Shown here piece by piece: positions 13,460 to 54,050 of a DNA stretch of 64,000 nucleotides. The stretch's first letter is position 1. Each line of letters starts with the position of its first letter. The notes below the pieces were generated by a model. It searched no databases, was not told the DNA's origin, and saw nothing but the letters and a program-made list of their open reading frames with translations. The position numbers and the translations under genes were made by a program. The DNA comes from Candidatus Parcubacteria bacterium (GTDB lineage: Bacteria > Patescibacteriota > Minisyncoccia > Minisyncoccales > JAGMDC01). Location: assembly GCA_023131895.1 (NCBI GenBank), contig JAGLYZ010000002.1, positions 43,364-107,363 of the forward strand, in the 5' to 3' direction.

Positions 13460-13468
13460 AAAAATAGA

Positions 13469-13690
13469 TTATTGATTAACTTCAAAAATTTTATTTCGTT
13501 GTTCAAACCCTTTAACCAATTTTATCTTTGAGTGTGAAATATTAAAATATGAAGCCAAAGCATCTCTTACTGCTCTATTTGCTAAACCCTTTACTGGCTT
13601 CGCCTTAACCTTAATCTCAAAACTATCTTCTGATTTTTTAATTATCTCTTTCTTTTTTGAATTTGGAAAAACTTTAACCTTAATCAACAT
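13469..13690 (-). CDS. DUF167/YggU-family protein
   Basis: 73 aa with YggU-like pattern (KVKAKPVKGLANRAVRDALASYFNISHSKIKLVKGFEQRNK). Confidence 0.7.
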   Translation of the reverse strand: MLIKVKVFPNSKKKEIIKKSEDSFEIKVKAKPVKGLANRAVRDALASYFNISHSKIKLVKGFEQRNKIFEVNQ

Positions 13691-13699
13691 TTTTCCGGG

Positions 13700-14245: not shown

Positions 14246-14249
14246 AATT

Positions 14250-15281
14250 TTAATTCTTAATCTGTGCTCGTTTAATCATAAATAGCACATTTTCATTAGC
14301 GTTTTTATACCTAATATCGATCTCTAGATGATGACTTTGCCAAACTCTAAAAACTTCATCAGCAAAGGATTGACCAATGGTATTAATATTCTTAAAATCA
14401 ATAATTATTGTTCTAAATTTGTCCAATCCGCTAAGAACTCTTCGTGCTTGAGAACGCGAAATAAAAACATTATTCATCTGATAAAGGTCAACCGTCACTT
14501 CGGTTTTACTAAATTCAAATGTATTTCCGGCAAATTTCTTAAATATAGCATTTAAATTTTGCATAGCTTTTTTGCCAATTTCAAATCGTACTTTTGTCCC
14601 TTTAATTGCTTTTATGTCTTTAATAAAAATATCATTGAGCTGGTTGTCAATAATTAATTTTTTGGTTGAACTATTAATAATTAATTTATCAGCTACTTTT
14701 GAAGTAAAAAAAATGCCCTCGCCTGTATGTTCTTTAGGGACAGTGGTTTGTTTTCCTTTTAAAAGGTCCTGAATTGCTTCTAATTCGTTTTTTAATCCTC
14801 TTTTTTCCATCAAATTATTAAAAATACCTATTCCAAAATCAATCACTTCAAAATTGACGCTAAATTTATCTTTTTCCATTATAACAACTATTTCTTTTGA
14901 ATTAGAGTGTTCAATAGCATTGTTTAACATCTCAGTAAAAGCGTAATCCAAAATAGAAACGATATTTTTTGGTAAATCCAAAAATATCCCGCAATCTTCC
15001 TTTATTTGATCTAAAATGTCAGATTCAGAAAGATTTTTGTTTTTAAGGATCCGCTTAATACTTAAAATTTCTCTTTTTGTTTTTCGGACAACACTCTTTC
15101 TTGCTTCAATATAGTGAGCCTGATTTGCTTTTCCAATTAAAGCAATTTTTTCCTGATTTACTAATTCCCTAAAGGATCTATTGATATAGGCGCGCGAAAA
15201 CCCAGTTGCTTTAACTACATCAGCAACCTTAACTTTCTTATTCTTTTTTAGGTGTTTTAATATTAATGCTTTTATATCCAT
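14250..15281 (-). CDS. wHTH - GHKL (HATPase_c, RsbW-like) - DUF4325/STAS-like three-domain regulator
   Basis: N-terminal winged-HTH (KVADVVKATGFSRAYINRSFREL), Bergerat N-box LNNAIEHS and G1 box IDFGIGI, C-terminal 90 aa resembling DUF4325. Confidence 0.5.
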   Translation of the reverse strand: MDIKALILKHLKKNKKVKVADVVKATGFSRAYINRSFRELVNQEKIALIGKANQAHYIEARKSVVRKTKREILSIKRILKNKNLSESDILDQIKEDCGIFLDLPKNIVSILDYAFTEMLNNAIEHSNSKEIVVIMEKDKFSVNFEVIDFGIGIFNNLMEKRGLKNELEAIQDLLKGKQTTVPKEHTGEGIFFTSKVADKLIINSSTKKLIIDNQLNDIFIKDIKAIKGTKVRFEIGKKAMQNLNAIFKKFAGNTFEFSKTEVTVDLYQMNNVFISRSQARRVLSGLDKFRTIIIDFKNINTIGQSFADEVFRVWQSHHLEIDIRYKNANENVLFMIKRAQIKN

Positions 15282-18924: not shown

Positions 18925-18995
18925 TTTTTTTCCTTATTATTTTAATTTAACTCATTTTTGGAGTTTTATCAATCTTTCTCTCATTTATCAACAAT

Positions 18996-20552: not shown

Positions 20553-20711
20553 AAAAAAACAGGGATTAAATAATTCAATACAATAGACGAATATATTAGT
20601 CGTTTTCGGCTATTTGCAATCAATTATTTCCCTGTTAAATCGCTCTCGTATATTCTATTGTTTGGATAAAAACTTTCATCATTGTTTATAATATACAAAT
20701 TAAAAATTATG

Positions 20712-22547
20712 TCAATGTTTTTCTTCTCGAGCCGCTCGTTTCGCGCTGTTTTCGTCCAAAAATACTTTTCTTATCCGGATATTTTTGGGAGTAATTTCCA
20801 CAAGCTCGTCATCGTTGATATAAACCAAGGCGTCTTCTAAATCCATGATTTTCGGTTCGTTAAAATGCTCGGTGACGCCATCGCCACGTGAACGCATATT
20901 AGAAAGCTGTTTTTCTTTGCAGACATTCACCCTGATATCTTCGCTTCTTGAATTCTGACCGACCACCTGGCCTTCATAAACTTTGATGCCAGGCCCCAAA
21001 AACAAAAACCCCCGGCTTTGAACGTTTCTCAATCCGTATAAATTGGTCATACCAGTTTCGTGAGCTACCAAAGAACCATGATTTCTTTCTTTCCAGCCGC
21101 CGGAATCCTTTTGATATTGATAAAAATTAGTATTAATAATACCCATGCCTTTAGTGTCAGTTAGAAATTCGCTCCTGTATCCAAAAAGGCCTCTGGTCGG
21201 AATGATAAATTCCAAAAAAACAATGCCGTCAATATTCTTCATATCAACCAACTCCCCTTTTCGGCTATTTAACTTTTGTATAACAGAACCATGGAATTTT
21301 TCCGGCACTTCAATGTAAACTTTTTCAAACGGAACCATTTTCTGTCCATCAATTTCCTTAACAATCACCTGAGGTCTGGAAACCTGCAATTCATAGCCCT
21401 CGCGGCGTATTCTTTCAATGAGAATAGCTAAATGCAGCTCTCCCCGTCCGGAAACCGTCCAACTGACGCTCGTTAATTCTTCAATTCTTAAAGCCACGTC
21501 GGTTTCCAATTCTTTATAGATCCTTGCTTTTACTTGGCGCGAAGTTGAAAACTGTCCTTCTTTGCCGGCAAACGGAGAATTATTGACCAAAAATGTCATT
21601 TTAACAGTCGGCTCTTCTATATTAATTATTGGCAGAGCTTTTGGATCTATAGGATCGGCAATTGTTTCCCCGATAGTCACGTCCGGTATTCCGGCTAAAG
21701 CCGCGATATCGCCTGCTGAAACCTCGGCTGCCTCCTTTCTGTTTAAGCCAGAAAAGGTCATTAAAGAAATTAAACGGTGTTTCTTTACCTGGCCGCGCTT
21801 GTTAATGTAGGTTATTTCCTGCCCGGATTTAATAACGCCGTTATGAACTCTGCCGATGCAAATTCTTCCCTTAAAATCGTCTCCAGAAATTGAAGTAACA
21901 AGCATCTGCAACGGCTTTTGCGGATCGCCTAATGGCGACGGAATATGCTTGAGAATCGCATCAAAAAGAGGGATAATATCAGTCATTTTATTAAGGTCGG
22001 GATCTATCCCCGCTTTGCCTTCTCTCCCAGAAGCATAAATTACAGGGAAATTCAAAGCGTTTTCGTCCGCGCTCAATTCTAAAAACAAATCAAGCGTCGC
22101 GTTTAAAGCAAAATCTATTCTCGCGCCGGCTTTATCTATTTTATTGATCACCACGATAATTTTATGGCCCATTTCAAGCGCTTTTTTCAAAACAAATCTG
22201 GTCTGATGCATGGGGCCGTCTTTTGCGTCAATTAACAGCAAACAACCATCCGCCATATTTAAAACTCTTTCCACCTCTCCGCCAAAATCCGCGTGGCCCG
22301 GAGTGTCAATGATATTGATTTTAGTCCCATTATAGTGAATCGCCGCATTTTTAGAAAAAATAGTGATACCTCTTTCCTTTTCCAACTCATTACTGTCCAT
22401 TATGCATACTTGATTAGCCAAATCTTTCCCCAAGTCGCTTTTGGACTGGCGCAATAAAGCGTCAACCAGCGTGGTTTTTCCGTGGTCAACATGGGCAATA
22501 ATAGCGATATTTCTGATATTAATTTTATCCATAATATTATTCAACAA
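20712..22547 (-). CDS. typA: translational GTPase TypA/BipA
   Basis: G1 AHVDHGKTT, G3 DTPGHADF, G4 NKID, EF-G-like domains; 611 aa. Confidence 0.9.
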   Translation of the reverse strand: MLNNIMDKINIRNIAIIAHVDHGKTTLVDALLRQSKSDLGKDLANQVCIMDSNELEKERGITIFSKNAAIHYNGTKINIIDTPGHADFGGEVERVLNMADGCLLLIDAKDGPMHQTRFVLKKALEMGHKIIVVINKIDKAGARIDFALNATLDLFLELSADENALNFPVIYASGREGKAGIDPDLNKMTDIIPLFDAILKHIPSPLGDPQKPLQMLVTSISGDDFKGRICIGRVHNGVIKSGQEITYINKRGQVKKHRLISLMTFSGLNRKEAAEVSAGDIAALAGIPDVTIGETIADPIDPKALPIINIEEPTVKMTFLVNNSPFAGKEGQFSTSRQVKARIYKELETDVALRIEELTSVSWTVSGRGELHLAILIERIRREGYELQVSRPQVIVKEIDGQKMVPFEKVYIEVPEKFHGSVIQKLNSRKGELVDMKNIDGIVFLEFIIPTRGLFGYRSEFLTDTKGMGIINTNFYQYQKDSGGWKERNHGSLVAHETGMTNLYGLRNVQSRGFLFLGPGIKVYEGQVVGQNSRSEDIRVNVCKEKQLSNMRSRGDGVTEHFNEPKIMDLEDALVYINDDELVEITPKNIRIRKVFLDENSAKRAAREEKH

Positions 22548-24598: not shown

Positions 24599-25762
24599 CT
24601 ACTTAATAATCCCTCCTTCTTTTTCTATTGTTTTCATTTTATCCTTTATCCCCTCCTCTAATTTTTTATATTTATCCCAAGTAAGCAACCAAACCAAGGC
24701 AATGGAATCAATGGCATCAGCCAAAATATAAATACTAATTTTATCAAGTTTATCTTTATACTCTGAATCTTCTAAAATTTTCATTTTTTCATATTCTTGT
24801 TTCTTAATGCCTTCCGGAATAAAATCAGTGGAAATTAAATAAGAAACAAAACAAACCGCTTTGACATAATCATATATCTTTTTGTTCCCCTTGCCTAAAA
24901 TTTTCTTATCAGCAAGTTTTCCTTTAACTTTTTCTATTTCCCACTTTCTTTTACTTAATTCATCTATTACTCCATAGAGAAAAGATTCTTTGAACTTTTC
25001 TTTCAGCTTTTTATTTTTAATAAACTCAGGCGCACCATCAATATCATAATCAAAAACATCTCTTTTTTTATCAAATTCGTAAAATTTTATTATTTCTTTA
25101 TCCCAGTATTTCTCCATATCTGGATGAATAGTTGAGGGTCCATAAAAGTCTCTATCATCGCAATGCGGCGGCACATGAGCGTCAGATAAATAATGACTTA
25201 ACATTAAGAAATAAAGCGCTATTTGATTATCATTGAACATAATATTGGAACCTTTTGGCTCCTTTTTTTGAATCAAAACCATATCTCTAATAGCGTGAGA
25301 TAGGGCCTCACATCTATCAGGAAGCACATATTTAGACTTTCTGCAGACTTTTTCTTTAAGTCTGGATTCATTAATTCCAAGTTTTCTCAACGAACACAAA
25401 TGATTCGGTGTTCGATTCTTGAATTCTTTAGCTTCTTTTCTTTCTTTCCTTGTTGACGGTTTTTTAAGTTTAAAGGTATGCCCGCCAGTGAGGTTATCAG
25501 AAATAACGTTGTCCGGAAACCAAGCCCCTTTAAGAAATGCATCTTTGTGTTTATCAAAAAATTTCACAAAGCTTTCAGCTTGTTTTTTAAAATGATCGTC
25601 AAAATCGTCGCCGAGAAAATAGCCCCTGAAATTTTTACCAAGAAAACTCCGCCTAAAAGATTTATATCTTTTAGGCCCCTTTAATCTTTCTAGGGCCATT
25701 AAGGCTAGCCAAGCATGAGCTATTTTTTTCATGTTTATTAATATCCTACCATCTATCTCCAC
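24599..25762 (-). CDS. Zn-dependent phospholipase C / S1-P1 nuclease superfamily-like protein
   Basis: LSHYLSDAHVPPHCDD matches the PLC/P1 zinc-binding block (L-H-Y-x-x-D-x-x-x-P-x-H); N-terminal HAW...; 387 aa. Confidence 0.45.
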   Translation of the reverse strand: MEIDGRILINMKKIAHAWLALMALERLKGPKRYKSFRRSFLGKNFRGYFLGDDFDDHFKKQAESFVKFFDKHKDAFLKGAWFPDNVISDNLTGGHTFKLKKPSTRKERKEAKEFKNRTPNHLCSLRKLGINESRLKEKVCRKSKYVLPDRCEALSHAIRDMVLIQKKEPKGSNIMFNDNQIALYFLMLSHYLSDAHVPPHCDDRDFYGPSTIHPDMEKYWDKEIIKFYEFDKKRDVFDYDIDGAPEFIKNKKLKEKFKESFLYGVIDELSKRKWEIEKVKGKLADKKILGKGNKKIYDYVKAVCFVSYLISTDFIPEGIKKQEYEKMKILEDSEYKDKLDKISIYILADAIDSIALVWLLTWDKYKKLEEGIKDKMKTIEKEGGIIK

Positions 25763-28903: not shown

Positions 28904-31261
28904 TTATATTTCTAGATCTCCTAATGCAGTTATCATTGGAAGTAAGGTTGGGGAAATCGCTCTTGAAAATTGTGAAATTTTCTCAAAAACCGACATAGCA
29001 CCAACTTTTGCGTCTTTAAAGGTTTTTTCTTTTTCAGCTTTTTTGTCAAAATCAAGGAAAGATATACCCAAAAGAACCATACCATACTTAAATCTTGCTT
29101 CTAAAATTTTAGGGTCAGTTTTTATATTTCCTTTTATCTCCATTTGAAGATAAATATTATCCATATTTATGTAAAAATCGTATCCTGCCTCCTCTCCCGC
29201 ATCTAATACATACAAAGCGCTTTTTTCATCGAACTTATATTTTTCCCACTCGTTTCTTCTCACCTCACAGATGTTAGGAATATCAAGATGAGCCGAGTCT
29301 TGTCTATCTGAACCTTTTTTCTTACCGGGAGACTTTTTCTTTTTATTCTCTCCATTATTATTTCCTTCGTTTTCCTGCGGTTGATCTATAATTATGCAAA
29401 ATTCATTTAAAAATGGTTCAACCCGGGTTATATCAGACACTTCTGATTGAAAGTATAGCTTGTCCCCGATTTTTACATCGGACAGCATTTCGATTGTTAA
29501 CGTGGCAATACCATTCCACAAATTTATAGAATGGTTTTTGGTAGCTATATTGTTAATTTTAATGATTAACTCGCCAGGTTCTTTGTCGCGATTAAAATAA
29601 TCATTTTCAGCATCGGTTTCATATTGGACACGAAATTTTGTATTACTTATGGGACACACTTTTGGCTTTGATTTTGTATATTCTTTATCTAATTTGAAAT
29701 AAGTAGGAAATTCCTTGCCTTTAAATTTCCCTTTCCCTGATACCCCCGTAAGCTTAAACGGATTTTTAATTCTTATACCTTTTGTAAAAAGGCTTGATAA
29801 TGATGGGGATTTTTTTATTATATTCTCTAAGATATCCGCTAACGGTTTTGAATCCTGCAACTTGTTTTCAATATCTTCTCTTCTCCTTTTTTCCCTCAAG
29901 TCTCTAAGTCCTTGGTGATTTTTAATAATATCTTCAAGGGACGCTTCGATTTCATCTTGCATCGGTCCACCGCTCAACCTGTCACGACTATTCATAAACA
30001 AATCTTCTTGCATTCTTCTATTAATTTTTGAACAATCTACCATAACCAAAATACTATCTACGAGGTAACCCATACGAACTGACTGCCGTTCAAAGAATGA
30101 CTTTAACAAAAAACCGTGCGTTTGGCCATTAACTGTAAAAATAATTCCTTCTTGGCCGGCATAAGTTTCTCTTTTTCCGGACTTAAATGCAAAAATTGAA
30201 TAATCCATTTTTTGTCCCCTGATAACAAGTTCACCAGAGCTTGGAAAGTTATCTTCAAGATTTTCTCGTTTATCTTCATCAAGTCTAACACTCAATCCGG
30301 AAAGTATTTTCAAGGGGCTTTTCTCATATCTAACATCGGCCACTTTTATAGGAAGAGCAATATTTGGCATCAAAAGTGAAAGTCTATTATGCAAGTGACG
30401 TGTGGCATCAGATCTTAAGCGACCTGTCCCTATTTGGTATTCATAAACTTTTACAAAAGTTCCGTGAGTTATAGGTTTTTTGTATGGCCGTATATCCTCT
30501 CCGGGCAATAACGGCAGAGACGATGAATTAAAAGAAAGAATTTTACCACCGGGAGCGAGATAAATAAAAACAGAACTTCTCATTTGACCAACTGGACTTT
30601 TCCTTCTAATAATTGTCATACCCCATTTATCATCTATATTTTCTTCTTTTATTCCAGGGTCTCTCTTTGATATGATTAGCTGTAAATTATGTTCCGGACT
30701 ACCAAATCTAAAAACTCCCGTTCCGCCCATTCCAAATTTACCTTGCACAAACTGAATTTTACTTTTATTACCCCTATTAAGAGAAAGAAAAGTATTAAGA
30801 AAAGATTTTGGTGACTGTCCTTCGCCTAAATCAACTATTGAATATGAAGGGTTTGCATTAGTCCCTTTTTCACCAGATGCAATTAAAAAAATATTTTCAG
30901 CAATTTTCGATCTTGTACTAGCGTCAATTAAAGATAACTTACCATTATAAATACCAAAATACTTTTTTTGGGCTTCGGCTATGTTTTTTGGTGCAGCGTC
31001 ACTTTCGGGCTTGATCCCGCTCCTCAAACATTCTCGCATTAATACCGCATCTACAGAATTAATAATTTTTTCAACGAGAGCAGTATCTGGTGCGCTCTGC
31101 TGATTACCGATAGTTGACCAATTTCCCTGACTCTCGTCAATTTCCTTCCACGTATTCTCGTCTTTCCATAAATTAAAACTATTTAATACTCCGATAACTT
31201 CTTTTTCTGTTTCTGCTTTTGCTAATAAAAGCGTTAGATTTTTGATATCTTCATTTACCAT
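28904..31261 (-). CDS. GHKL/Bergerat-fold ATPase domain protein (HATPase_c_3-like, MORC/Hsp90-like ATP-binding site) with about 550-aa uncharacterised C-terminal region
   Basis: N-box EKIINSVDAVL (E-x3-N-x2-DA), G1 box IVDLGEGQSP (D-x-G-x-G), G2 box GKFGMGGTGVF in the N-terminal 200 aa; 785 aa. Confidence 0.6.
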   Translation of the reverse strand: MVNEDIKNLTLLLAKAETEKEVIGVLNSFNLWKDENTWKEIDESQGNWSTIGNQQSAPDTALVEKIINSVDAVLMRECLRSGIKPESDAAPKNIAEAQKKYFGIYNGKLSLIDASTRSKIAENIFLIASGEKGTNANPSYSIVDLGEGQSPKSFLNTFLSLNRGNKSKIQFVQGKFGMGGTGVFRFGSPEHNLQLIISKRDPGIKEENIDDKWGMTIIRRKSPVGQMRSSVFIYLAPGGKILSFNSSSLPLLPGEDIRPYKKPITHGTFVKVYEYQIGTGRLRSDATRHLHNRLSLLMPNIALPIKVADVRYEKSPLKILSGLSVRLDEDKRENLEDNFPSSGELVIRGQKMDYSIFAFKSGKRETYAGQEGIIFTVNGQTHGFLLKSFFERQSVRMGYLVDSILVMVDCSKINRRMQEDLFMNSRDRLSGGPMQDEIEASLEDIIKNHQGLRDLREKRRREDIENKLQDSKPLADILENIIKKSPSLSSLFTKGIRIKNPFKLTGVSGKGKFKGKEFPTYFKLDKEYTKSKPKVCPISNTKFRVQYETDAENDYFNRDKEPGELIIKINNIATKNHSINLWNGIATLTIEMLSDVKIGDKLYFQSEVSDITRVEPFLNEFCIIIDQPQENEGNNNGENKKKKSPGKKKGSDRQDSAHLDIPNICEVRRNEWEKYKFDEKSALYVLDAGEEAGYDFYINMDNIYLQMEIKGNIKTDPKILEARFKYGMVLLGISFLDFDKKAEKEKTFKDAKVGAMSVFEKISQFSRAISPTLLPMITALGDLEI

Positions 31262-40240: not shown

Positions 40241-40462
40241 CTATTCTTTTATTCCTTTAACTGCTTCTTCTTTTTCTGTGTCAAGCAAAATGATATCCTT
40301 TAAAGTTTTCAAAAGACCAATCCTTTCTTTTTCATCTAAATAAGGCAATCTATCTAAAAATTCCTTTCTTTGTTCTTCTGTTATTAATGGAGTTTCTTTA
40401 ATAAGGCCTTTCAAAGATTTATTTGTGAGAAGAATATTAGTCATAAGTTTATATTTCTCCAA
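40241..40462 (-). CDS. hypothetical small protein (73 aa)
   Basis: ORF overlapping the upstream E/K-rich gene end by 14 nt. Confidence 0.35.
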   Translation of the reverse strand: MEKYKLMTNILLTNKSLKGLIKETPLITEEQRKEFLDRLPYLDEKERIGLLKTLKDIILLDTEKEEAVKGIKE

Positions 40463-42158
40463 AAATAATTGCTAAAATCCAATCTATTAGACCATACTTT
40501 TTTTCTGAGAATTCTTTATAAACTTCTTTCTGCTCGTCTGTAAGTTTTTCTGGCTCAATCCCCCAACTTTCAAGAGTTTCTCTCAAACCTTCCTCATCTT
40601 CTTCCCATTCTCCTTCTAATTCTTCATCTTTTTTTATTAATTTAGTAAATTCTTTTTTTATATTTTCTTTCCCTTCTTTGCCTTTTCCAAATTCTTTTTC
40701 TATTTTCGCTTTTCTTTTAGAATCTTTGTCAATTTCTTTTGATAATTCTCGTGCCGCTACATCTCTTCCCATTTTTTCATAACATTTCTCTATTATTTCA
40801 TCTGTGGTTTTTTCCACTTCCTCTTTAAGAATATCATTCTTTTTTTCTTCAAATTTTATATTCCATTCCTCTCCCAATTCCTCTTTTTTGGTATTAATTT
40901 CTCCATTTTTTATTTCATTACCTATTTCAATAATTTTTTCAAATCTTGTCATTTTTATCTTCCCACCTATTTGCTTCCCTGTTATATTAACTTTATCCTC
41001 ACCAAAAGGATTAATTTTTCTTGCTTTTTTTATTTTTCCAATCTCCTCTGGAGAAATTTCCTGTTTTAGAAAAGCAAGAACATCACTTTCTTCTATTTCC
41101 TTCAATCCTTTCAAATTCTTATTTAAAGTTTCCTGCAGATAATCTACTCTTGACTTAGCATAATCATCAATACTTCCCGCTGCTTTTTGCTTCACAGGCG
41201 ATAATCTGTCCCATTCCTCCTGAAAAAATTTATTTATTTCTTCAATTTTAAAAGTTTCTATTCCTTTTTCTACATAATCATTTTTTTCTCCTATACCTGC
41301 TTCAGTTTTTGTTTTCTTATCTAAATTTTCTCCAACAAGCTTTTCCCAAACTTTTTCTTTAATTGGACCCTCGGGAAGACGTTTGAAAATTGCTGTTTTT
41401 ATATCCGGAGGGAGATCTTCTCCAAAATATTCTATTTCTTCTCTTAAATTTTCAGCGTATTTCCATTCTTTATTCTCTTTATCAAGTAAACCCCAAAATT
41501 CATTCTTATCCCTGACACAATCCATTACTCTGCTTTCATCAAACTCATCTATGTCTTGCCCTGCCAATTCCGAATAATCATCTGGGTAATTTTCTATTTG
41601 CTCTTTTAACCATTCTTTACCTTGACTAACTAAAATATCTTTCATTTGCTCCTCAAGAATGCCTTGAATACTTTTAATAGTATCTTTATCTACGCTAAAT
41701 CTTTCTTTGTCGTAAAATCTTCTATAAATTTCACTTTTTCTATCCTCTGTTTTCTTTCTTTTTTCCTCTTCCAATTTTTCTCCCAATTCAGGAGATTTTT
41801 TCTTCTTTTTTCTCTCTACTTTTTCTTCCTTTTCCTTTTTTTCTTTTTCTTCTTCTCCTTTTCCCGCTTCTTTTTTTCTCGCTTCCAGTATTTTTTCAAT
41901 CTCTTCCTTTGACATACTATCTTTATCTATTTCTTTATCCGCTATTTTTTCTCCTTTTTCTTGTTTTCCCACATTTTTTTTGTTATTATTTTCATCTTTT
42001 AGTTCCGACCTTTTTATTTTTTCTTTTGTTTCGTTTGTAAAATCATCCTCTTTCACTTCCTCCTCTTCTTCAACTGAAAAATTCCAGCCCGTCTCTTTGC
42101 CCGTTTCTTTCATCTCTTTGAGAATTTTTTTTCCTAATCCTCTTTCTCTTTTTCTCAT
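40449..42158 (-). CDS. lysine/glutamate-rich low-complexity protein (569 aa) with hydrophobic C-terminal tail
   Basis: About 45% K+E, coiled-coil character, ends in LIDWILAIIFGEI; immediately downstream of the VirD4-like gene. Confidence 0.5.
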   Translation of the reverse strand: MRKRERGLGKKILKEMKETGKETGWNFSVEEEEEVKEDDFTNETKEKIKRSELKDENNNKKNVGKQEKGEKIADKEIDKDSMSKEEIEKILEARKKEAGKGEEEKEKKEKEEKVERKKKKKSPELGEKLEEEKRKKTEDRKSEIYRRFYDKERFSVDKDTIKSIQGILEEQMKDILVSQGKEWLKEQIENYPDDYSELAGQDIDEFDESRVMDCVRDKNEFWGLLDKENKEWKYAENLREEIEYFGEDLPPDIKTAIFKRLPEGPIKEKVWEKLVGENLDKKTKTEAGIGEKNDYVEKGIETFKIEEINKFFQEEWDRLSPVKQKAAGSIDDYAKSRVDYLQETLNKNLKGLKEIEESDVLAFLKQEISPEEIGKIKKARKINPFGEDKVNITGKQIGGKIKMTRFEKIIEIGNEIKNGEINTKKEELGEEWNIKFEEKKNDILKEEVEKTTDEIIEKCYEKMGRDVAARELSKEIDKDSKRKAKIEKEFGKGKEGKENIKKEFTKLIKKDEELEGEWEEDEEGLRETLESWGIEPEKLTDEQKEVYKEFSEKKYGLIDWILAIIFGEI

Positions 42159-42181
42159 GTTTTTTACCCTGTTAAATAATT

Positions 42182-44626
42182 TTATCCAAGTCTTGACCTT
42201 TCCATTATTTCTCTTTCAACAAGTGCTCTTGGTCTGCCATATTTTAGCTTGGAGATTTTCTTGACTGGTTCTACAATTTTTGGATTACCTCCAACTGGTT
42301 TAATGGTTTTTACCTTAAATGGAGAAGAAACCTTGTTGTCTATTATCATCTTAACAATAAACTGAAAATTATCAAGATTAACTAAGTCATAACGGGAGAA
42401 TTCCGGCTCAAGGACATTTTCCAAAAATTCAGCATCAGTGGCGCCAATTCTGAAGGCAGCAATTGTTCCCACGTTTCCAATCACAGCGTTTCTAATCTCA
42501 TCGGTTAATTGAGGAATAAACTGGTGTGCTAAAATTAAATCCAAACGGTATTTTCTCGCCTCTGATAAAATAGTAGCAATGGTATCAGTGGTGAAGTTTT
42601 GAAATTCATCAATATATAAGTAAAAATCTTTTCTCTGTTCTTCAGGCAGTTTCCCTCTTTTCATTGCAGCTAACTGCATTTTTGAGACCAAAATCAAACC
42701 CAATAAAGAACTATTCATTTCGCCTGTTTGTCCTTTTGACAAATTGGCTAAAAATATTTTTCCTTCATCCATAATCTTTGCCAAATCAAACCCAGAAAAG
42801 GACTGGCCAATAATATTCCTCATCATTTCATTCTCAACAAATCTGCCAACTTTGGAAACAACATAACCAAGCATATCTGACTTTGTTTCGCCAGTTGTTT
42901 GAGCCCATTCTTTCAGCCAGAACTGCTTTACTAAAGGATCTTTGACTTTTTCTAACCGTTCCTTCATAAAATCATCATCTGTAAAAATTCTTGGAATTTC
43001 CACTAATGTTCCTGGGTTTTCTTTATCTGCCATTAAAGCAAGCATTGCGTTTCTCATATAATGCTCAAACATAGGACCAATGATTTCTGGAGGAAAAAGC
43101 TTGGAGAAAATAGCAATCATTTCAGAAACAGCAAAATCTTTTTGTTCAGGCGTATCCCATTCCAGCATATTTAATCCGCATGGTCTTTCTAAATCAAATG
43201 GTTCAAACAAAACCACATCTTCAGCCCTTTCTTTTGGAATATTTGCTAAAGTGTCTTCAATCAAATCACCGTGAGGGTCAATTACAGCTACCCCTCTTCC
43301 TTGTTCTATATCCTGACGGATCATTTCTCTTAACAAGGATGACTTACCAGTTCCGGTTTGACCAATAATATAACAATGGCGGCGCCTGTCGTTTTCTGAA
43401 GCAAAATAAACATCTTTTTCTTCATTGCGAAAAACTGCCTTACCTATTAAATTAAGTCCAGTAGAGGGCAATTCAGTAGGCGGCGCTGTTTCTTTTGTTT
43501 TGACCCACTTGATTTGAGGGCTTTCAATATTAGATAAAGGGAAATGATAAATACTTGTAAGTTCTTCTAAATTTAGAATACTCCTCTGGTTTTTATTGAA
43601 AACACGAAAACTGAAATTATAAATAAACTGCTTGAGTTTGTTCGCTTTTATTCTTACTGCCTTAAATTCATTGAAATTATTATAAAACTGGGAAAAACCG
43701 CTTTCTAAGTGGTCTAAAATTTCCTCTGCCCTTGATTGTTCCGGTGCTACACTTACTAAACGGATATTTATATCAAAAACCGGCTTTTGGATTTTTGTTT
43801 TAATTGCTTCAAAGCTCGGTTCTTCAAATGGTTTGTCTTTTTCTTTATCTAATAGTCCTTTCTTCTCTTCTTCTTTTTTTGGAGATACTGCTTCAAAAAA
43901 TGATTCAAAAAACTTCATTATTCCGCTTTTCTCTGCTTCAGTAATAGCTGATGAGGCAGATTTTCCTTCTCTGATTTTATAAAGAACCTTTTCTCCCTTA
44001 TACTTCAAATCTATTGGACAAGGCCTAAGAATTATTTGAACTGCCGCTCCTTCGTCAGGATTAATCTTGCTTAAAGTATTAGTAATGCTTGCCAAAGGAT
44101 CTCTATCCAAATTTTTATAAGTATTAATCGGATAATAAATTGCTTTTTTTAATTTTAGATAACAACCAGATACTTTTCCTTCTGGTTCAAATACAGTATA
44201 ATCTTCAGGAACTTTTTCTACTTGAGCGCCTGGATATAATCCCTGAATATTTTTTTCTAATCTGGTTGCCAAATCAGTTGGAACAGCAACATAAAAAGAA
44301 ATATCACTGCCGCCTGTTTGTGAAGCAATTTCTAAAGCAATTCTTGGCGAGCCTTGCAAAAATCTTTTAATAAAATTCGGCTTTTCTAAATACAAAAAAT
44401 TAGAATATATCTGCTCCATTATTCCAATCACTGATTTTATGTCCTGTTTCTCTTTTTCTTCTTTCTTTTCGTATTTCGGTAATCTCACCAAAAACAAAAC
44501 CATATCCAATGATTTTGTTAATTGCTTAATTTTTCTTTTCTTAATAACTAAAAACCAACCTGTTCCAGCAAGAATAAAAGCTATAAAAATTAAAATCGTA
44601 AATAAAAAATACATAAATAGTATCAA
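42182..44626 (-). CDS. TraG/VirD4/TrwB-like coupling-protein ATPase (FtsK/HerA superfamily) with N-terminal membrane anchor
   Basis: N-terminal TM helices (ILFMYFLFTILIFIAFILAGTGWFLVI), Walker A IIGQTGTGKSS followed by VIDPHGD (cf. DPKGE of VirD4/VirB4), Walker B LYIDEFQNF, C-terminal LILAHQFIPQL (cf. VirD4 ...TQS..QL); 814 aa. Confidence 0.55.
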   Translation of the reverse strand: MILFMYFLFTILIFIAFILAGTGWFLVIKKRKIKQLTKSLDMVLFLVRLPKYEKKEEKEKQDIKSVIGIMEQIYSNFLYLEKPNFIKRFLQGSPRIALEIASQTGGSDISFYVAVPTDLATRLEKNIQGLYPGAQVEKVPEDYTVFEPEGKVSGCYLKLKKAIYYPINTYKNLDRDPLASITNTLSKINPDEGAAVQIILRPCPIDLKYKGEKVLYKIREGKSASSAITEAEKSGIMKFFESFFEAVSPKKEEEKKGLLDKEKDKPFEEPSFEAIKTKIQKPVFDINIRLVSVAPEQSRAEEILDHLESGFSQFYNNFNEFKAVRIKANKLKQFIYNFSFRVFNKNQRSILNLEELTSIYHFPLSNIESPQIKWVKTKETAPPTELPSTGLNLIGKAVFRNEEKDVYFASENDRRRHCYIIGQTGTGKSSLLREMIRQDIEQGRGVAVIDPHGDLIEDTLANIPKERAEDVVLFEPFDLERPCGLNMLEWDTPEQKDFAVSEMIAIFSKLFPPEIIGPMFEHYMRNAMLALMADKENPGTLVEIPRIFTDDDFMKERLEKVKDPLVKQFWLKEWAQTTGETKSDMLGYVVSKVGRFVENEMMRNIIGQSFSGFDLAKIMDEGKIFLANLSKGQTGEMNSSLLGLILVSKMQLAAMKRGKLPEEQRKDFYLYIDEFQNFTTDTIATILSEARKYRLDLILAHQFIPQLTDEIRNAVIGNVGTIAAFRIGATDAEFLENVLEPEFSRYDLVNLDNFQFIVKMIIDNKVSSPFKVKTIKPVGGNPKIVEPVKKISKLKYGRPRALVEREIMERSRLG

Positions 44627-44641
44627 TAGTATTTCACTGTT

Positions 44642-45364
44642 TTATTTTCTTCCAAACAATCTTTTTATTATTCCCAGCCTACCTTTCTCTTCCTCTTCTT
44701 TCTCTTTCCCTTCTGGTATTCCTGTTTCTTCTCCACTAATTTTTTCTTCATCTTTTTCTGACTCTGTCTTTTTCACAAGCTCTCCTCTTCGTTCTAATTC
44801 TTGTAATTCTTCCTTTAATTGATTATAATTTTCTTCCAATTTCTTCATTTCTTTTTCTCTTTCTTCTAAATCTATCAGAGGATTTTGCCATTTTTCTTCT
44901 GGTATTCTACGAATTCCACCTTTGTCAAATTCACCTTTTTCTATTCTTATTTTAAATCTTTCCGCATTCTCCTTCGCCATAGTTAACATCTTATATTTCT
45001 GGTCTATTTCTAAAATTACTCCTTCTAAGTTATTAAAAATCTCCTCGGCTTTTTCTGTTAACAATCCATTTCTTTGCAACTCTTTCCAATTTTCCATTTC
45101 TCGCATTTTTTCCATAGCTTCTTCTATTTTTTCTTTCTCTTCTTCTATTATTTCCCTTTCTTCTGGTGTTAATTCGTCTTTTAACTCTTTCCTTGTTTCT
45201 TTAATCTTTCTTTTGTCTTCGGCTTCAATCTCGGCTTCTTGTTCCTCAATTTCCTCTTCTGACACTTCTTCAATTTTTTCTTCTTTAACTGCCCCTTCTT
45301 CTTTCCTTTTTTCTGCTCTTGTTCTGCCCTCATATTCAATTTTAGGTTTTTCTTGTTTTGGCAT
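44642..45364 (-). CDS. E/K-rich coiled-coil protein (240 aa) with N-terminal PKIEYEG motif
   Basis: Low-complexity charged heptad-like sequence; shares its N-terminal motif with the genes at 47346-48254 and 46652-47248. Confidence 0.5.
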   Translation of the reverse strand: MPKQEKPKIEYEGRTRAEKRKEEGAVKEEKIEEVSEEEIEEQEAEIEAEDKRKIKETRKELKDELTPEEREIIEEEKEKIEEAMEKMREMENWKELQRNGLLTEKAEEIFNNLEGVILEIDQKYKMLTMAKENAERFKIRIEKGEFDKGGIRRIPEEKWQNPLIDLEEREKEMKKLEENYNQLKEELQELERRGELVKKTESEKDEEKISGEETGIPEGKEKEEEEKGRLGIIKRLFGRK

Positions 45365-45417
45365 AAATTTAAATTTTGAATTTTTTTTATTAAACTCGAC
45401 CTTTTTATTTTTCTAAT

Positions 45418-45807
45418 TTATTTTTCTAAAAATTTCTTGAAACGGCCTTCTTCTGCTAAAGTGTCGTGGAATAAATCTAAAAGATATGGGTCGTTCATTT
45501 TCCGAACCACTTCTACCGCATAAGCCAAACCCTGGGTTTGAGCCAAATCTAAAAGATGCTGGATCTTCCCTTGAACCGTTCCTTTTTTTATATCATCGGC
45601 TTGCTTTTGGGCTTGGACTTTTGTTTGAGGAGATAACTTAACCTTTTCAATCTCTTTTTCTATTTCTTTCCTTGCTTCTTTTTCCTGCTCGGTTAATTCT
45701 TTCTTTTCTAAAATCTCCTCCCTTTCTTCTAGGGTTTCTTTGGGAAAAACCTCTTCTCTGTATTCCTTTCCCGGTGCCTTTTCAATTTTTTTATTTGTTT
45801 CTTCCAT
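45418..45807 (-). CDS. E/K-rich small protein (129 aa)
   Basis: Charged N-terminal half, conserved-looking C-terminal helical region (LLDLAQTQGLAYAVEVVRKMNDPYLLDLFHD). Confidence 0.45.
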   Translation of the reverse strand: MEETNKKIEKAPGKEYREEVFPKETLEEREEILEKKELTEQEKEARKEIEKEIEKVKLSPQTKVQAQKQADDIKKGTVQGKIQHLLDLAQTQGLAYAVEVVRKMNDPYLLDLFHDTLAEEGRFKKFLEK

Positions 45808-45808
45808 A

Positions 45809-46648
45809 TTATTTTTGATTTACGATACTAAAATAAAAGTTTAAAACATCATTCATACATTCAACAATAAAACTCAAAAAATCGCTTCCATCGTGCTGGA
45901 CAGATGCTTTTTCTAAAGCATTAATATATATACCTCTTTTTTCTAAAGGAATAATAGTAATCGGATAACTGTCTCGCAAAAGCATTAAATTCATTAAAAG
46001 CCGGGCTGCTCTGCCATTGCCATCAGTAAAAGGATGAATATGAGTAAAGCAGAAATGAAATAAAACAGCTCTTTTTATAGGATGAATATCAATATCGTTC
46101 ATAATCTTTACAAATTCTTCCATTAATTCAGGAACTTTTTCTGGTCGAGGCAGAACATGACGAGAACCTTTAATAAATCGCTGGTTTTTTCTATAAAATC
46201 CAATGCCATATTCATATTCTTTTTCTAAATTTTCCATTGGTTTAAACAAAATTTTATGAACTTCTTTCATTAAATCTTCGTTTAAAGGATATTTTTCTTT
46301 TTCTTTAACAATTTCTTTGATAAACTTCAACGCCTTATTATATCCTAAAACCTCTAAATGATCTTTTAAGGGCTTGCCAGAGATAGTAATTCCTTTTTCT
46401 ATTACTAATGCGGTCTCACCCAAAGTTAAAGTGTTCCCTTCTATCGCCGTGGAATTATGAATTTCATCAATAGCAAGTTTTTCTTCAAGCGATTTTAACG
46501 ACCCTGCTGGCAAAGGCCTTAAAGAATTTAATTCCTTGTTTCGCTTTTCAATCTCTCTCAAATCCACCTTTTCAAAACTCGTCAGTACTTTATCCATTAT
46601 TTCCTTAAAATCCGCGACATAACTTTGTAATTGATTTTGATTAGACAT
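45809..46648 (-). CDS. Fic/Doc-family protein (probable AMPylase) with intramolecular inhibitory helix (class II)
   Basis: Canonical Fic motif HPFTDGNGRAAR (HxFx[DE]GNGRxxR) and upstream inhibitory motif STAIEGN ([ST]xxxE[GN]); 279 aa. Confidence 0.85.
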   Translation of the reverse strand: MSNQNQLQSYVADFKEIMDKVLTSFEKVDLREIEKRNKELNSLRPLPAGSLKSLEEKLAIDEIHNSTAIEGNTLTLGETALVIEKGITISGKPLKDHLEVLGYNKALKFIKEIVKEKEKYPLNEDLMKEVHKILFKPMENLEKEYEYGIGFYRKNQRFIKGSRHVLPRPEKVPELMEEFVKIMNDIDIHPIKRAVLFHFCFTHIHPFTDGNGRAARLLMNLMLLRDSYPITIIPLEKRGIYINALEKASVQHDGSDFLSFIVECMNDVLNFYFSIVNQK

Positions 46649-46651
46649 AGT

Positions 46652-47248
46652 CTATTTCTTTTCGCCTTGAAAATATTTTTCTTTCAAAAATTTACTAAAT
46701 TCTTGCATCTCTTTTTGGTAAACCAATATTCCCTCTTCTTGCTTGGCTTGAGGCAAATCCTCAACCACATCCGCTCCTTGATTAGTGATGGCAAAAGCCC
46801 CATAAATTCCCCGTGATTCTATATGAAGCCGAATATCAAAAGCAACTTCTCTATCTTTGTAAAACTCATCTAATAATTCAATCATTCTTGATTGGTGTTT
46901 TAGATTTTCTTTTTTCCATTCTTTTTGAACTGATTCACTCTCTTTTAAATTTTTTGGTTCAGGAGATTTAATCCAAACCCAAGGAGCCCTTGATTGATGT
47001 CCTTTTACCTCTATTTCTTCGGGGCGCTTGGCGGGATGTCCTTCACAAGATTGATATGTTGGAAATTCTAAAGCTTTTAGGGTAATTACAGTTTCTTTAA
47101 TCCCAGGATCAATAGGCCTTCCTTCGGCATCTGCTATTTTTTTAACTTCTTTCTCTATTTCTTTTAAGCGCTTTTCTTTTAAGGGTAACTTTAATTCTTG
47201 CGATTTCTCTTCGGCATTTTCAATTTTTGACTTGAATCTCTCTCGCAT
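46652..47248 (-). CDS. hypothetical charged protein (198 aa), N-terminus MRERFKSKIEN...
   Basis: ORF 4 nt from the Fic gene; N-terminal motif shared with neighbours. Confidence 0.45.
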   Translation of the reverse strand: MRERFKSKIENAEEKSQELKLPLKEKRLKEIEKEVKKIADAEGRPIDPGIKETVITLKALEFPTYQSCEGHPAKRPEEIEVKGHQSRAPWVWIKSPEPKNLKESESVQKEWKKENLKHQSRMIELLDEFYKDREVAFDIRLHIESRGIYGAFAITNQGADVVEDLPQAKQEEGILVYQKEMQEFSKFLKEKYFQGEKK

Positions 47249-47316
47249 AATTCTACTATATTTTTATTTCACTATTTGTTCTATTCTATCATAATTGAAC
47301 TAAAAATAAAGAGTTA

Positions 47317-47349
47317 TAACACATCGAGGACAGTTCTCGATGTATTTAT
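47317..47349. repeat. REP-like palindromic element AACACATCGAGGACAGTTCTCGATGTATTTATT overlapping the stop codon of the HExxH gene
   Basis: 8-bp stem ACATCGAG/CTCGATGT; near-identical copy at 48261-48293. Confidence 0.5.
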
Positions 47350-48254
47350 TTCTCTATATCTAAATATTCTTTAGCTTTTAACATATCTTTTTCAAAACTA
47401 TCTTGTAAAACATCAATCTCTTTATTATAAACATTTCTAACAGCTTCGGTTATAGTCTTTTTATTTTTAAACATTTCTTGCCAAAGTTCTTGTAATTTCC
47501 TTAATCCGTATTTTTTCTCAAGCCAAGGATAAACAAATCCCTCCCAACTTTTGATTTCATCTTCCCAATCTTTCCCGGTTCCTTCCCACGAAAAACTTTC
47601 GCTCTTTTTTTCTAATTCCTTTAATTCTTTTTGAGCTTGTTTAAATTGATATTTTCTAAAACGCTTATTGCCAAAATTTGTTCTAATTTTTTCTCCAATG
47701 AAAATAGAGACCATTTCTTGCTCCCATTTACTCTCTGATTCCTCATTACCAACTCCGCCAAAAAAAGGATGCAGATGCCCAAGTTCATGACCCACTCCGG
47801 AAAATATACCGCTACGAGCAGTGTTTTCAATCTCTTTTAAAAAAATTCCCTTTTTTTGTAATAAATCCTTATATTCTTCTATTTCCTCTTTAGTTAGAAC
47901 AGATACATACTTAAAAACACTTTTTGTCTCTTTATCAAAAGTTGCCGATTCCGGGGATATATTTGGAAAATTTTCCTTTAAGAATTTGGAATATTTTTCT
48001 TTATCTGAAAATAAATAGATTTTTGATTTCTCGCTTGCCATATCTCTTTTTGAACCCAATATCTTATCAACAAATTCTTTCACTTCATCAAATTTTTTCT
48101 CATCACCATCTTCTAAAATGTTTTTTATTTCATTATTATAATAAATCTCAAAATTTTCAGATGTTAACGGCCCTTCTTCAAAAATATCTTCTTTTTTTTC
48201 TGTCATTTCTTTTTCTTTTCCATATTCAATTTTTGGCGTAAATTTTTCCCTCAT
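47346..48254 (-). CDS. putative zinc metallopeptidase-like protein (HExxH), N-terminus MREKFTPKIEYGKEKE...
   Basis: Single HELGH motif within GVGHELGHLHPFFGG; otherwise charged and uncharacterised; 302 aa. Confidence 0.45.
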   Translation of the reverse strand: MREKFTPKIEYGKEKEMTEKKEDIFEEGPLTSENFEIYYNNEIKNILEDGDEKKFDEVKEFVDKILGSKRDMASEKSKIYLFSDKEKYSKFLKENFPNISPESATFDKETKSVFKYVSVLTKEEIEEYKDLLQKKGIFLKEIENTARSGIFSGVGHELGHLHPFFGGVGNEESESKWEQEMVSIFIGEKIRTNFGNKRFRKYQFKQAQKELKELEKKSESFSWEGTGKDWEDEIKSWEGFVYPWLEKKYGLRKLQELWQEMFKNKKTITEAVRNVYNKEIDVLQDSFEKDMLKAKEYLDIEK

Positions 48255-48260: not shown

Positions 48261-48293
48261 AACACATCGAGGTCTGTCCTCGATGTGTTTATT
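48261..48293. repeat. REP-like palindromic element AACACATCGAGGTCTGTCCTCGATGTGTTTATT overlapping the RAYT stop codon
   Basis: 11-bp perfect stem ACACATCGAGG/CCTCGATGTGT. Confidence 0.5.
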
Positions 48294-49014
48294 AATTTAT
48301 TAATATTTCTTTAAAATTGGAATCGGCCATTTGTTTTTTGAGCAAAAGCCATTGTTTAATAAAATGACGGCTATTATCTACACTGCCCATTAAGTTAGCT
48401 AATAACTCTCTGTTTGTTAATGAAGGATAATTTTTCCTGCCTAAATAATCAGGATAACTTGACCATTTATAACTTTCTAAAAACTCAATAATTTCTTCCA
48501 AATTTTTAATTTTAATTCCTTGTTCTTTCCATTTAGGAGCTATAATGGCCACTGGATTCGTATGGATATAAACAAATAATGTTTTTAATTGCTCATCATT
48601 TTTCACAAGAACTGCTCTAAATTTTCCCCCGAAAACATGACCCTTTCTTTCGTATTTCTTATTATAATAGATTCCATAACCTGCTCCAATTTTTCTCATA
48701 AACTTACTAATTCCGCTGTCGCTAATTTGTTTGACTAATAAATGAACATGATTTGGCATCAAACAAAACGCCAAAATCTGTATCAATATCTCTCTTTTCT
48801 TTCTTATAACTTTGCCGAGAACTGTTCTCGGCAAAGTTTTAGCAGTCTTGTGACGATAACCTGAATCAATTGGATTTTCGTCGTTGAATTCAAATAAATT
48901 ATGAAGAAAACGAAAATAATCCTTTTCATTCCTAAAAAGATTCATTCCTTCAACTGCTCGAATAACAATATGGTATATTTCTTCATTTACTAACGGTGGC
49001 CTTTTAATTGGCAT
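48292..49014 (-). CDS. IS200/IS605-like HUH tyrosine transposase of the REP-associated (RAYT / TnpA_REP) type
   Basis: Y1-transposase fold signatures: YHIVIRAVEG, HUH motif LMPNHVHLLV, catalytic-Tyr helix (IYYNKKYERKGHVFGGKFRA); 240 aa; flanked by palindromic REP-like elements. Confidence 0.8.
   Translation of the reverse strand: MPIKRPPLVNEEIYHIVIRAVEGMNLFRNEKDYFRFLHNLFEFNDENPIDSGYRHKTAKTLPRTVLGKVIRKKREILIQILAFCLMPNHVHLLVKQISDSGISKFMRKIGAGYGIYYNKKYERKGHVFGGKFRAVLVKNDEQLKTLFVYIHTNPVAIIAPKWKEQGIKIKNLEEIIEFLESYKWSSYPDYLGRKNYPSLTNRELLANLMGSVDNSRHFIKQWLLLKKQMADSNFKEILIN
48808..48838. repeat. perfect 14+2+14 palindrome AACTTTGCCGAGAAC-TG-TTCTCGGCAAAGTT inside the RAYT coding sequence
   Basis: Read directly; encodes ...KTLPRTVLGKV... 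in frame; shares the CCGAGAAC..GTTCTCGG core with elements at 49025 and 53949. Confidence 0.5.
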
Positions 49015-49024: not shown

Positions 49025-49051
49025 ACTGTCCGAGAACGGTTCTCGGACAGT
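49025..49051. repeat. REP-like palindrome ACTGTCCGAGAAC-g-GTTCTCGGACAGT between the RAYT start and the CaCA stop
   Basis: 13-bp perfect arms; ends 2 nt before the CaCA stop codon. Confidence 0.5.
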
Positions 49052-53967: not shown

Positions 53968-53975
53968 GGCTCTTG

Positions 53976-54050
53976 TGGCCCTGACGGGATTTGAACCCGT
54001 GTTACCAGATTGAGAATCTGACGTCCTAGACCAAGCTAGACGACAGGGCC
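53976..54050 (-). tRNA. tRNA-Glu (anticodon CTC), CCA not encoded
   Basis: Hand fold: acceptor GGCCCUG/CAGGGCC, D-arm CGUC...GACG, anticodon stem UCAGA/UCUGG with loop UUCUCAA, T-arm ACGGGUUCAAAUCCCGU, discriminator A. Confidence 0.75.

Follow-up and report, generated by a model that had tools for sequence, protein, structure and literature searches.

A conserved ATPase–p129 gene pair and its variable neighbors on a Candidatus Parcubacteria contig

A stretch of 64,000 nucleotides from a Candidatus Parcubacteria bacterium (contig JAGLYZ010000002.1, positions 43,364–107,363; hereafter, the window) contains at 40241–48254 a block of eight tightly packed minus-strand open reading frames (ORFs) encoding 73, 569, 814, 240, 129, 279, 198, and 302 amino acids. 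The block brings together a membrane-anchored ATPase that resembles type IV coupling proteins (T4CPs), a Fic protein, a metallopeptidase-like protein, and several proteins rich in lysine and glutamate (K/E-rich), and it raises the question of whether these genes form one functional unit. A preliminary description of this DNA, made from its letters, had proposed that the block is a host-manipulation cassette or, alternatively, the remnant of a conjugative element. Neither proposal is supported by the comparison with related loci. Instead, we favor, with a probability of about 0.65, a region composed of three layers of different age rather than a single cassette, namely a core module of the ATPase and the 129-residue protein p129, a set of fast-evolving K/E-rich ORFs, and a strain-specific islet.

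The ATPase and its partner p129

In a comparison set of 83 related ATPase loci with their flanks, p129 and the ATPase make up a conserved two-gene core module across Parcubacteria/Paceibacteria. More than 2,600 homologues of the ATPase were found; the best 120 are all ~810-residue proteins of Patescibacteria with 62–100% identity, and with each GTDB species represented by a single genome, at least 594 species were found to carry the gene. Between the Staskawiczbacteria and Nealsonbacteria loci, that is, across orders, the ATPase retains 59–64% identity, compared with 49–58% for RmuC and 57–71% for ribosomal protein L21 in the same comparison. Judged by these sequence identities, the ATPase appears about as conserved as L21 and equal to or more conserved than RmuC.

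The chromosomal setting also recurs, with Na/Ca exchangers upstream and RmuC and L21 downstream of the module, RmuC adjoining it in the closest relatives only and lying 3–9 kb away elsewhere. In L001, a fully syntenic locus whose ATPase is 91% identical to that of the window, the order is exchanger, repetitive extragenic palindromic (REP)-associated tyrosine transposase (RAYT), p129, ATPase, a 633-residue K/E-rich ORF, a 70-residue ORF, RmuC, and L21. In L004, where the identity of the ATPase is 94%, the exchanger is followed by p129, a homologue of p240, the ATPase, two additional charged ORFs (12498–14206), a 627-residue ORF, a p73 homologue, and RmuC. Strong purifying selection acts on the p129–ATPase module, whose place in the chromosome is fixed. 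Such core-gene-like identity and recurring synteny are not what the remnant of a mobile element would show.

The ATPase consists of a short membrane anchor, a DUF8128 domain, and a T4CP-like nucleotide-binding domain (NBD). Its 814 residues are counted from a TTG start; public annotations use the ATG at 44614, four codons downstream, which yields 810 residues. Hydropathy in a 19-residue Kyte–Doolittle window peaks at 2.91 within residues 1–30, and the AlphaFold2 (AF2) model places a helix at residues 2–40. According to precomputed Pfam annotation, the DUF8128 domain (PF26449) occupies the N terminus of protein P0001, which is 100% identical, and of all 120 listed homologues; PF26449 was not matched in our local Pfam scan, whose copy may not hold the model, and a literature search for DUF8128 returned nothing. 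Based on structure prediction, this domain shares the fold of the VirB4 N-terminal domain. The NBD carries the Walker A motif GQTGTGKS, the motif DPHGD, the Walker B motif YIDEFQN, and an AHQ..QL motif (LILAHQ..QL), and the AF2 model, of moderate confidence, shows a purely helical stretch (~493–606) between two strands, inside the region that aligns with TrwB.

Profile searches, which covered 40 window ORFs for Pfam and 10 block ORFs for NCBIfam, place the C-terminal half of the ATPase close to the T4CPs. It passes the gathering scores of TrwB_AAD_bind (PF10412; 41.4 bits versus 20.5), T4SS-DNA_transf (PF02534; 35.5 bits versus 20.1), and DUF87, whereas TraG-D_C (PF12696) stays just under its cut-off with 20.3 bits versus 22. 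Likewise, hhalign aligned the ATPase with TrwB over 242 columns at a probability of 94.6% (E = 7e-8), compared with 4% for the VirB4 protein TrwK; the profile comparison with PcfC of pCF10 gave no signal. Against HerA, the ATPase domain scores equally well. The NCBIfam equivalogs of the TraD and CD1115 families were matched far below their cut-offs, the best being SXT_TraD (46 bits versus 366), with conju_CD1115 at 33.6 bits versus 250. Two NCBIfam models of the VirB4 type gave faint matches of 16–17 bits against cut-offs of ~590–640 (TIGR00929, VirB4: 17 bits versus 643), and no VirB4 family was matched by Pfam among the 40 window ORFs.

In p129, the product of the second gene of the module, the N-terminal half is K/E-rich and looks disordered. 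The C-terminal domain of ~50 residues is conserved (consensus KIxxLLxLAxxKGVxxAVxVAKxMNDPYxLDxFHDxLA), and no Pfam or PDB relative was found for it; D111 and D115 are invariant in alignment A4. No transmembrane (TM) segment is predicted for p129 or p240, and neither protein matched a Pfam family. Of the 83 loci, 61 have a homologue of p129 upstream of the ATPase; in 56 of these, the two genes abut, with a spacing between about -20 and +162 nt. Another subclade carries the p129 domain as an in-frame N-terminal fusion to the DUF8128 ATPase, producing proteins of ~910–1,000 residues in which no N-terminal hydrophobic helix is visible; examples are L073 (9650–12406), P0219, P0222, P0264, P0266, P0316, and P0333. 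An N-terminal extension is present in ~28 of the 150 best DUF8128 representatives, all six of those inspected contain the p129 motif, and hhalign supports the p129 domain in the fusions with E values of 3e-6 and 8e-5. The fusion is strong evidence that p129 and the ATPase work together, it argues for direct contact between the two proteins, and a cytoplasmic location of the DUF8128 domain fits with it.

These results bear directly on the classification offered in the preliminary description. Its VirD4-like assignment is borne out for the motor half by the Pfam gathering scores and by the hhalign preference for TrwB over TrwK, and the motifs and the membrane anchor that it named are present, the latter as one N-terminal hydrophobic helix. 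Among the profile families that it had singled out for classification, TrwB_AAD_bind and T4SS-DNA_transf were passed and no Pfam VirB4 family was matched, whereas TraG-D_C fell short. It had also weighed the case that the ATPase is of VirB4 type and its neighbors are core genes. Half of that case applies here: p129 is indeed a lineage-wide core gene, and the N-terminal domain of the ATPase is predicted to be VirB4-like in fold.

Charged ORFs and the strain-specific islet

p240, p569, and p73 are fast-evolving, are found in close relatives or scattered lineages, and are linked to the ATPase by position only. The p240 homologue in L004 (61% identity, same position) is the only one found, and p240 is absent from L001 and most other loci. 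At the p240 position, L089 carries a 288-residue K/E-rich ORF (2267–3133) with a similar tail and weak similarity, and L070 has a 199-residue ORF (2922–3521) inserted between p129 and the ATPase. While the neighboring ATPases are 91–94% identical, p569 and its L001 and L004 orthologues share 30% identity overall and 62–73% over residues 1–95; p569 also keeps its short hydrophobic tail at the C terminus. K/E-rich ORFs of 500–630 residues followed by a p73 homologue also occur in L051, where the C-terminal TM helix is full, and in L063, and homologues of p73 hold the same relative position in L001, L002, L004, L051, and L063.

In 9 of 57 loci, the next ORF after the ATPase is rich in K and E, compared with 1.8% of background ORFs. 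In addition, only 10 of 1,891 ORFs carry a PKI[EK] motif among their first 20 residues, a count that rests on a motif set post hoc and a small sample; apart from p302 and its homologues, all of these ORFs have a DUF8128 ATPase no more than about two genes away. At the DNA level, the 5' ends of p302, p198, and p240 share a similarity of 40–50 nt.

The RAYT gene with its REP hairpins, p302, p198, and the Fic gene are strain-specific accessory genes that only adjacency ties to the ATPase. No homologue of Fic, p198, or p302 was present in any of the 83 ATPase loci, and the gap between the exchanger and p129 holds only the RAYT gene in L001 and nothing in L004. Because its contents differ between strains, this gap is a variable site for strain-specific accessory genes.

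The Fic protein contains the HxFx(D/E)GNGRxxR motif as HPFTDGNGRAAR, and its N-terminal STAIEGN aligns with the inhibitory TVAIEGN of FICD, the autoinhibitory glutamate being kept. Among proteins of solved structure, human FICD is its best relative (E = 1.6e-34) and BtFic the next (3cuc; 2.5e-29), and it is probably an AMP transferase/de-AMPylase. In PADLOC, it matches SoFic at 1.6e-37, covering positions 29–265 of 361 in that profile, and the PDC-S04 models at ~1e-30. A 78%-identical Fic gene lies directly after a Na/Ca exchanger in L094, and a frameshifted Fic pseudogene (best segment 83% identical) lies between RseP and ProS on another Patescibacteria contig (L095, 6001–6730). As this second copy is broken by frameshifts, the gene is dispensable.

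The remaining two proteins of the islet belong to small families. p198 has 36 homologues in varied contexts and no Pfam or PDB match; its sole recurrence beside the module is in L089, upstream of p129 and the ATPase and without Fic. In the 34-member p302 family, five residues do not vary (H156, E157, W177, Q179, and E180) and conservation of H160 is at least 90%, with E180 located 20 residues past the second histidine of the HExxH motif. Peptidase_MA_2 (PF13485) was matched by 13 of 30 p302 family members (best E = 1.3e-6) and not by p302 of the window itself, for which no PDB relative was found either. The contexts of the p302 homologues are unrelated to the ATPase; the one in L087 has CHAP-TIR and GmrSD_N in its surroundings and a Y1 transposase gene two genes upstream. 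Neither p198 nor p302 matched a PADLOC defence model.

The RAYT-like gene comes next after the eight-ORF block, beyond p302. Its product passes Pfam Y1_Tnp (44 bits versus 23) and reaches 45.8 bits against a cut-off of 80 for NCBIfam REP_Tyr_transpos. Two REP-like palindromes bracket p302 exactly and are the only copies in the window (0 expected by chance), and together with a third, different palindrome, they fall within 1.7 kb. In L001, a RAYT gene of 77% identity stands at the corresponding position, and L004 has none; given this shared position in a relative, the gene looks like a resident and not like a recent arrival by transposition.

The window is an AT-rich chromosomal stretch (GC ~33%), and the GC content of the block, 0.30–0.35, is close to that of the remainder. 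The combined K+E fraction is 0.31–0.44 in six block ORFs versus a window median of 0.20, and these six are among the eight most K+E-rich of the 52 window ORFs. As all genes from 38.7 to 63.7 kb share the minus strand up to the window end, the co-orientation of the block is uninformative. Housekeeping genes surround it, including CysS, DnaB, RecR, L21, RmuC, a Ca-ATPase, two Na/Ca exchangers, PBP2, MraZ/MraW, ClpB, UvrD-type helicases, and BipA, and the Ca-ATPase and the two exchanger genes lie between the block and tRNA-Glu. No relaxase was matched by the Pfam scans of the 40 window ORFs, and no integrase, relaxase, VirB4, or direct repeats bounding the block were found. In its inventory, the preliminary description was accurate: the eight co-oriented ORFs, the K/E richness, the RAYT/REP unit at the 3' edge (a Y1_Tnp match with REP-like palindromes), a tRNA-Glu placed ~5 kb away, the lack of relaxase and VirB4 matches among the scanned ORFs, the class II Fic protein with its own inhibitory helix (FICD alignment, motif, and Pfam score), and the HExxH protease-like protein with its family-conserved motif and glutamate were all recovered.

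Table 1. Coordinates of the block, its subfeatures, and nearby elements (window positions unless a locus is named).
Feature	Position	Strand	Description
p73	40241–40462	-	73 residues; overlaps the end of p569 by 14 nt
p569	40449–42158	-	K/E-rich; conserved N-terminal ~95 residues; short hydrophobic C-terminal tail GLIDWILAIIFGEI
Membrane-anchored ATPase	42182–44626	-	TM helix, DUF8128, T4CP-like NBD
T4CP-like NBD	42407–43447	-	residues ~394–740; motifs and predicted all-helical insert ~493–606
DUF8128 domain	43532–44509	-	residues 40–365; cytoplasmic alpha/beta
N-terminal TM helix	44543–44626	-	residues ~1–28, then KKRKIK; hydropathy and AF2
p240	44642–45364	-	K+E 0.44; between p129 and ATPase; basic-hydrophobic tail IIKRLFGRK
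p129	45418–45807	-	small soluble ATPase partner, 129 residues; synteny and fusions
Fic	45809–46648	-	FICD-like class II Fic, 279 residues; Pfam Fic 80 bits
p198	46652–47248	-	charged protein; small orphan Patescibacteria family
REP-like palindrome, copy 1	47321–47343		ACATCGAGGACAGTTCTCGATGT, 23 nt; between p302 and p198
p302	47346–48254	-	HELGH; MA-clan (gluzincin-like) metallopeptidase-like; no signal peptide
REP-like palindrome, copy 2	48264–48286		between RAYT and p302
RAYT	48292–49014	-	RAYT-like Y1 (IS200-like) transposase; Pfam Y1_Tnp
Third, different palindrome	49025–49051		ACTGTCCGAGAACGGTTCTCGGACAGT; between Na/Ca exchanger and RAYT
tRNA-Glu	53975–54050		5.7 kb from the block
PKI[EK] sites, window	45364; 48254		p240; p302
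PKI[EK] sites, other loci	9206, 13412; 9636; 4222; 6974		L004; L015; L016; L079

Three further observations concern the window outside the block. At 3961–4893 (plus strand), an ORF encodes a full-length TFIIB/TFB of the archaeal/eukaryotic type, with a zinc ribbon and two cyclin repeats (Pfam TFIIB 157 bits; human TFIIB and Pyrococcus TFB match at E ~1e-53). It lies among bacterial genes (MurC, LigT, radical-SAM/LigB-family/AMMECR1 genes, and EF-P) in a stretch with slightly higher GC and a strand switch, and it could be an archaeal transfer or an assembly chimera. At 11586–15281 (minus strand), there is a defence-like run of genes for a nucleotidyltransferase, an Mrr/AF1548-like nuclease, and a histidine-kinase-like ATPase with DUF4325 (STAS-like). 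Two large minus-strand ORFs, of 785 residues (28904–31261) and 387 residues (24599–25762), matched no Pfam family at E values up to 1e-4.

What the module may do

In the three-layer reading that we favor, the ATPase would form a membrane-associated ring, as in its T4CP, VirB4, and HerA relatives. p129 may bind the cytoplasmic face of this ring as an adaptor or regulator, by analogy with TrwA–TrwB and CagZ–Cagbeta, and ATP hydrolysis would move a macromolecular substrate or hand it over at the membrane. The most likely route would be a chromosomal type IV secretion system (T4SS) of the Gram-positive type, with the VirB4-like domain docking to its membrane partners. Conjugative DNA is unlikely as a substrate because relaxases are almost absent from the phylum; a survey of T4SS genes in Patescibacteria (Quinonero-Coronel et al. 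2025; PMC12102498) lists 109 relaxases in 103 genomes. Patescibacteria depend on host bacteria, a T4SS is essential in the one species tested, and its cluster encodes no coupling protein. If the module holds up, it would thus be a candidate for the missing substrate-recruiting component or for an exapted motor.

Several observations weigh against this picture. No T4SS component lies within the window, and T4SS genes occur within 10 kb of the ATPase in just one of the 83 loci, which is why the link between the ATPase and a T4SS is one that we infer. In that locus (L003, from the complete Nealsonbacteria genome CP179892), a T4SS pilin, an 825-residue ORF, a 140-residue ORF, and PrgI/VirB3 are located at 17348–22454, 6–10 kb downstream of the ATPase, and no VirB4 gene was seen in the locus sequence, which stops at PrgI. 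The ATPase structures used here are AF2 predictions. As reported in the survey, the T4CP homologue of S. epibionticum is non-essential and its T4SS genes are essential; such non-essentiality is equally compatible with exaptation and with work in a T4SS. Finally, p198, Fic, and p129 are spaced by 1–3 nt and are therefore probably co-transcribed, so a functional tie between the islet and the module is possible.

The main rival holds that the pair of p129 and the DUF8128 ATPase works independently of a T4SS, as a motor exapted for housekeeping translocation at the membrane, for example of DNA in division, uptake, or repair, or in the export of the K/E-rich neighbors. In the survey (PMC12102498), 5,713 T4CP homologues were counted in 2,918 of 3,035 genomes (96%), compared with VirB4 in 2,417 genomes (80%), and 148 of the 5,713 were near virB4; the authors themselves raise a possible exaptation. 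The reported non-essentiality in S. epibionticum, the ribosomal-protein-like conservation, the housekeeping synteny that includes RmuC, the fused subclade in which no N-terminal hydrophobic helix is visible, and the equal score against HerA all point in the same direction. However, the sequence profiles favor T4CPs, the N-terminal domain is predicted to have the fold of a T4SS-specific domain, RmuC is a direct neighbor in the closest relatives only, and a role on DNA is without direct support. Taken together, we consider an exapted motor unlikely, while it is the most serious competitor of the favored reading.

A further proposal concerns the islet, in which Fic, p198, and p302 would form a small defence- or toxin-like unit brought in with the RAYT/REP unit. 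The PADLOC matches of Fic to SoFic and PDC-S04, the L087 homologue of p302 near CHAP-TIR, GmrSD_N, and a Y1 transposase, the REP hairpins that flank p302, and the strain-specific occurrence of the islet are consistent with this proposal. The three genes do not travel together elsewhere, however, and the alignment of Fic to SoFic is partial, its best solved relative, FICD, is a chaperone regulator, and p198 and p302 gave no defence match in PADLOC. We regard such a unit as doubtful; for Fic itself, defence or self-regulation is no less plausible than secretion.

It is improbable, in our view, that the near-universal coupling protein of Patescibacteria represents a third kind of T4SS ATPase, with a VirB4-type N-terminal domain, a VirD4-type motor, and p129, and that the flanking K/E-rich, tail-bearing proteins (p240, p569, and their counterparts, several with a common PKIE-like motif near the N terminus) are polymorphic substrates that it delivers to the host.

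The host-manipulation cassette of the preliminary description, in which the ATPase recognizes the Fic, metalloprotease-like, and K/E-rich neighbors and passes them through a secretion system into a host cell, is very unlikely. In its favor, the genes lie side by side with little space between them, the block gathers six of the eight most K/E-rich window ORFs, and p569 combines a conserved N terminus with a diverged remainder in the manner of polymorphic effectors. Moreover, the excess of K/E-rich ORFs downstream of the ATPase (9 of 57 loci versus 1.8% of background), the post hoc PKI[EK] motif common to several ATPase-flanking ORFs and p302, and the recurrence of p198 upstream of the module in L089 speak for such a cassette. 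However, Fic, p198, and p302 are missing from all 83 loci, including the relatives with ATPases 91% (L001) and 94% (L004) identical, the surroundings of their homologues are for the most part unrelated and differ from one another, and one copy of Fic has become a pseudogene. The Fic protein is of the autoinhibited, FICD-like class II kind, and to our knowledge, secreted Fic effectors described so far are not. In addition, no signal peptide, TM segment, or known translocation signal was identified in these proteins, and the window encodes no secretion apparatus. The Fic and protease-like neighbors should not be annotated as effectors of the ATPase, which would keep a wrong annotation from spreading.

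The idea that the block is a decayed integrative and conjugative element near tRNA-Glu, with the ATPase as its surviving coupling protein and the RAYT and accessory genes as cargo, appeals to the T4CP-type domains, the adjacent RAYT with REP hairpins, the tRNA 5.7 kb away, and the variable neighbors, but it is hardly credible, as many species carry the ATPase in the same chromosomal position, among housekeeping genes and with L21-like conservation, no integrase, relaxase, VirB4, other T4SS gene, or bounding direct repeat was found nearby, the base composition of the block is near that of the rest of the window, and the Ca-ATPase and two exchangers separate it from the tRNA.

Comparison with known systems

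Comparing the islet proteins with characterized relatives, the Fic protein shares with FICD/HYPE and BtFic the Fic core and an N-terminal (S/T)xxxE(G/N) motif, with residues 19–270 aligned. The alignment begins at residue 79 of the FICD chain, so that the N-terminal part of FICD is unmatched, and the window gene is strain-specific in its lineage. Likewise, the p302 family keeps the HExxH motif and downstream glutamate of MA-clan zinc metallopeptidases (Peptidase_MA_2; thermolysin-type HExxH + E), whereas this family of putative peptidases is small and restricted to Patescibacteria. As in RAYT/REP systems, a Y1 transposase domain is found here with short palindromes close by; unlike in those systems, the RAYT scores under the NCBIfam cut-off and there are just two REP copies in 64 kb.

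The partner protein recalls TrwA, CagZ, and the DotL adaptors, which are small and soluble, as is p129, and act on the cytoplasmic face of a coupling ATPase. No sequence similarity between p129 and these adaptors was found, and the analogy comes from gene order and fusion; homology to PcfB was likewise undetected (hhalign 0.6%).

The ATPase itself combines features of two families. Like the T4CPs (VirD4/TraG/TrwB, with solved structures of TrwB of R388, DotL, and Cagbeta), it has an NBD with Walker A and B, DPxG(D/E), and QxxQL-type motifs and a predicted helical insert, it is anchored in the membrane at its N terminus, and a small accessory gene lies directly upstream, as in trwA–trwB of R388 and pcfB–pcfC of pCF10. 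While canonical T4CPs usually have two TM helices, the window ATPase has one, and a DUF8128 domain of ~330 residues separates this anchor from the NBD. It also differs from T4CPs in being a chromosomal, lineage-wide core gene with neither a relaxase nor a T4SS neighbor, and in scoring far under the NCBIfam equivalog cut-offs (46 bits versus 366 at best). With VirB4 (TrwK of R388), it shares its size (~810 versus 823 residues) and a two-domain build, and VirB4 has an insert comparable to the helical stretch predicted at residues ~493–606. Unlike VirB4, it has no VirB4-family sequence signal and no VirB3/PrgI gene beside it, the upstream gene being p129 or p240.

The window gene also resembles the T4CP homologues of Patescibacteria counted in the survey (PMC12102498). 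These belong to the same phylum, give VirD4-type hidden Markov model matches, are nearly universal, and mostly lie far from virB4 and without a relaxase. The passages of the survey that were searched do not describe DUF8128 or a VirB4-like N-terminal domain, a p129 partner, or fusion variants, and within the portions of the literature searched, the VirB4-like N-terminal domain, p129 with its fusions, and the hypervariable charged neighbors are not described. The window ATPase is very probably one of these chromosomal T4CP homologues, which it matches in layout, and as such belongs to a widespread family that had been catalogued before.

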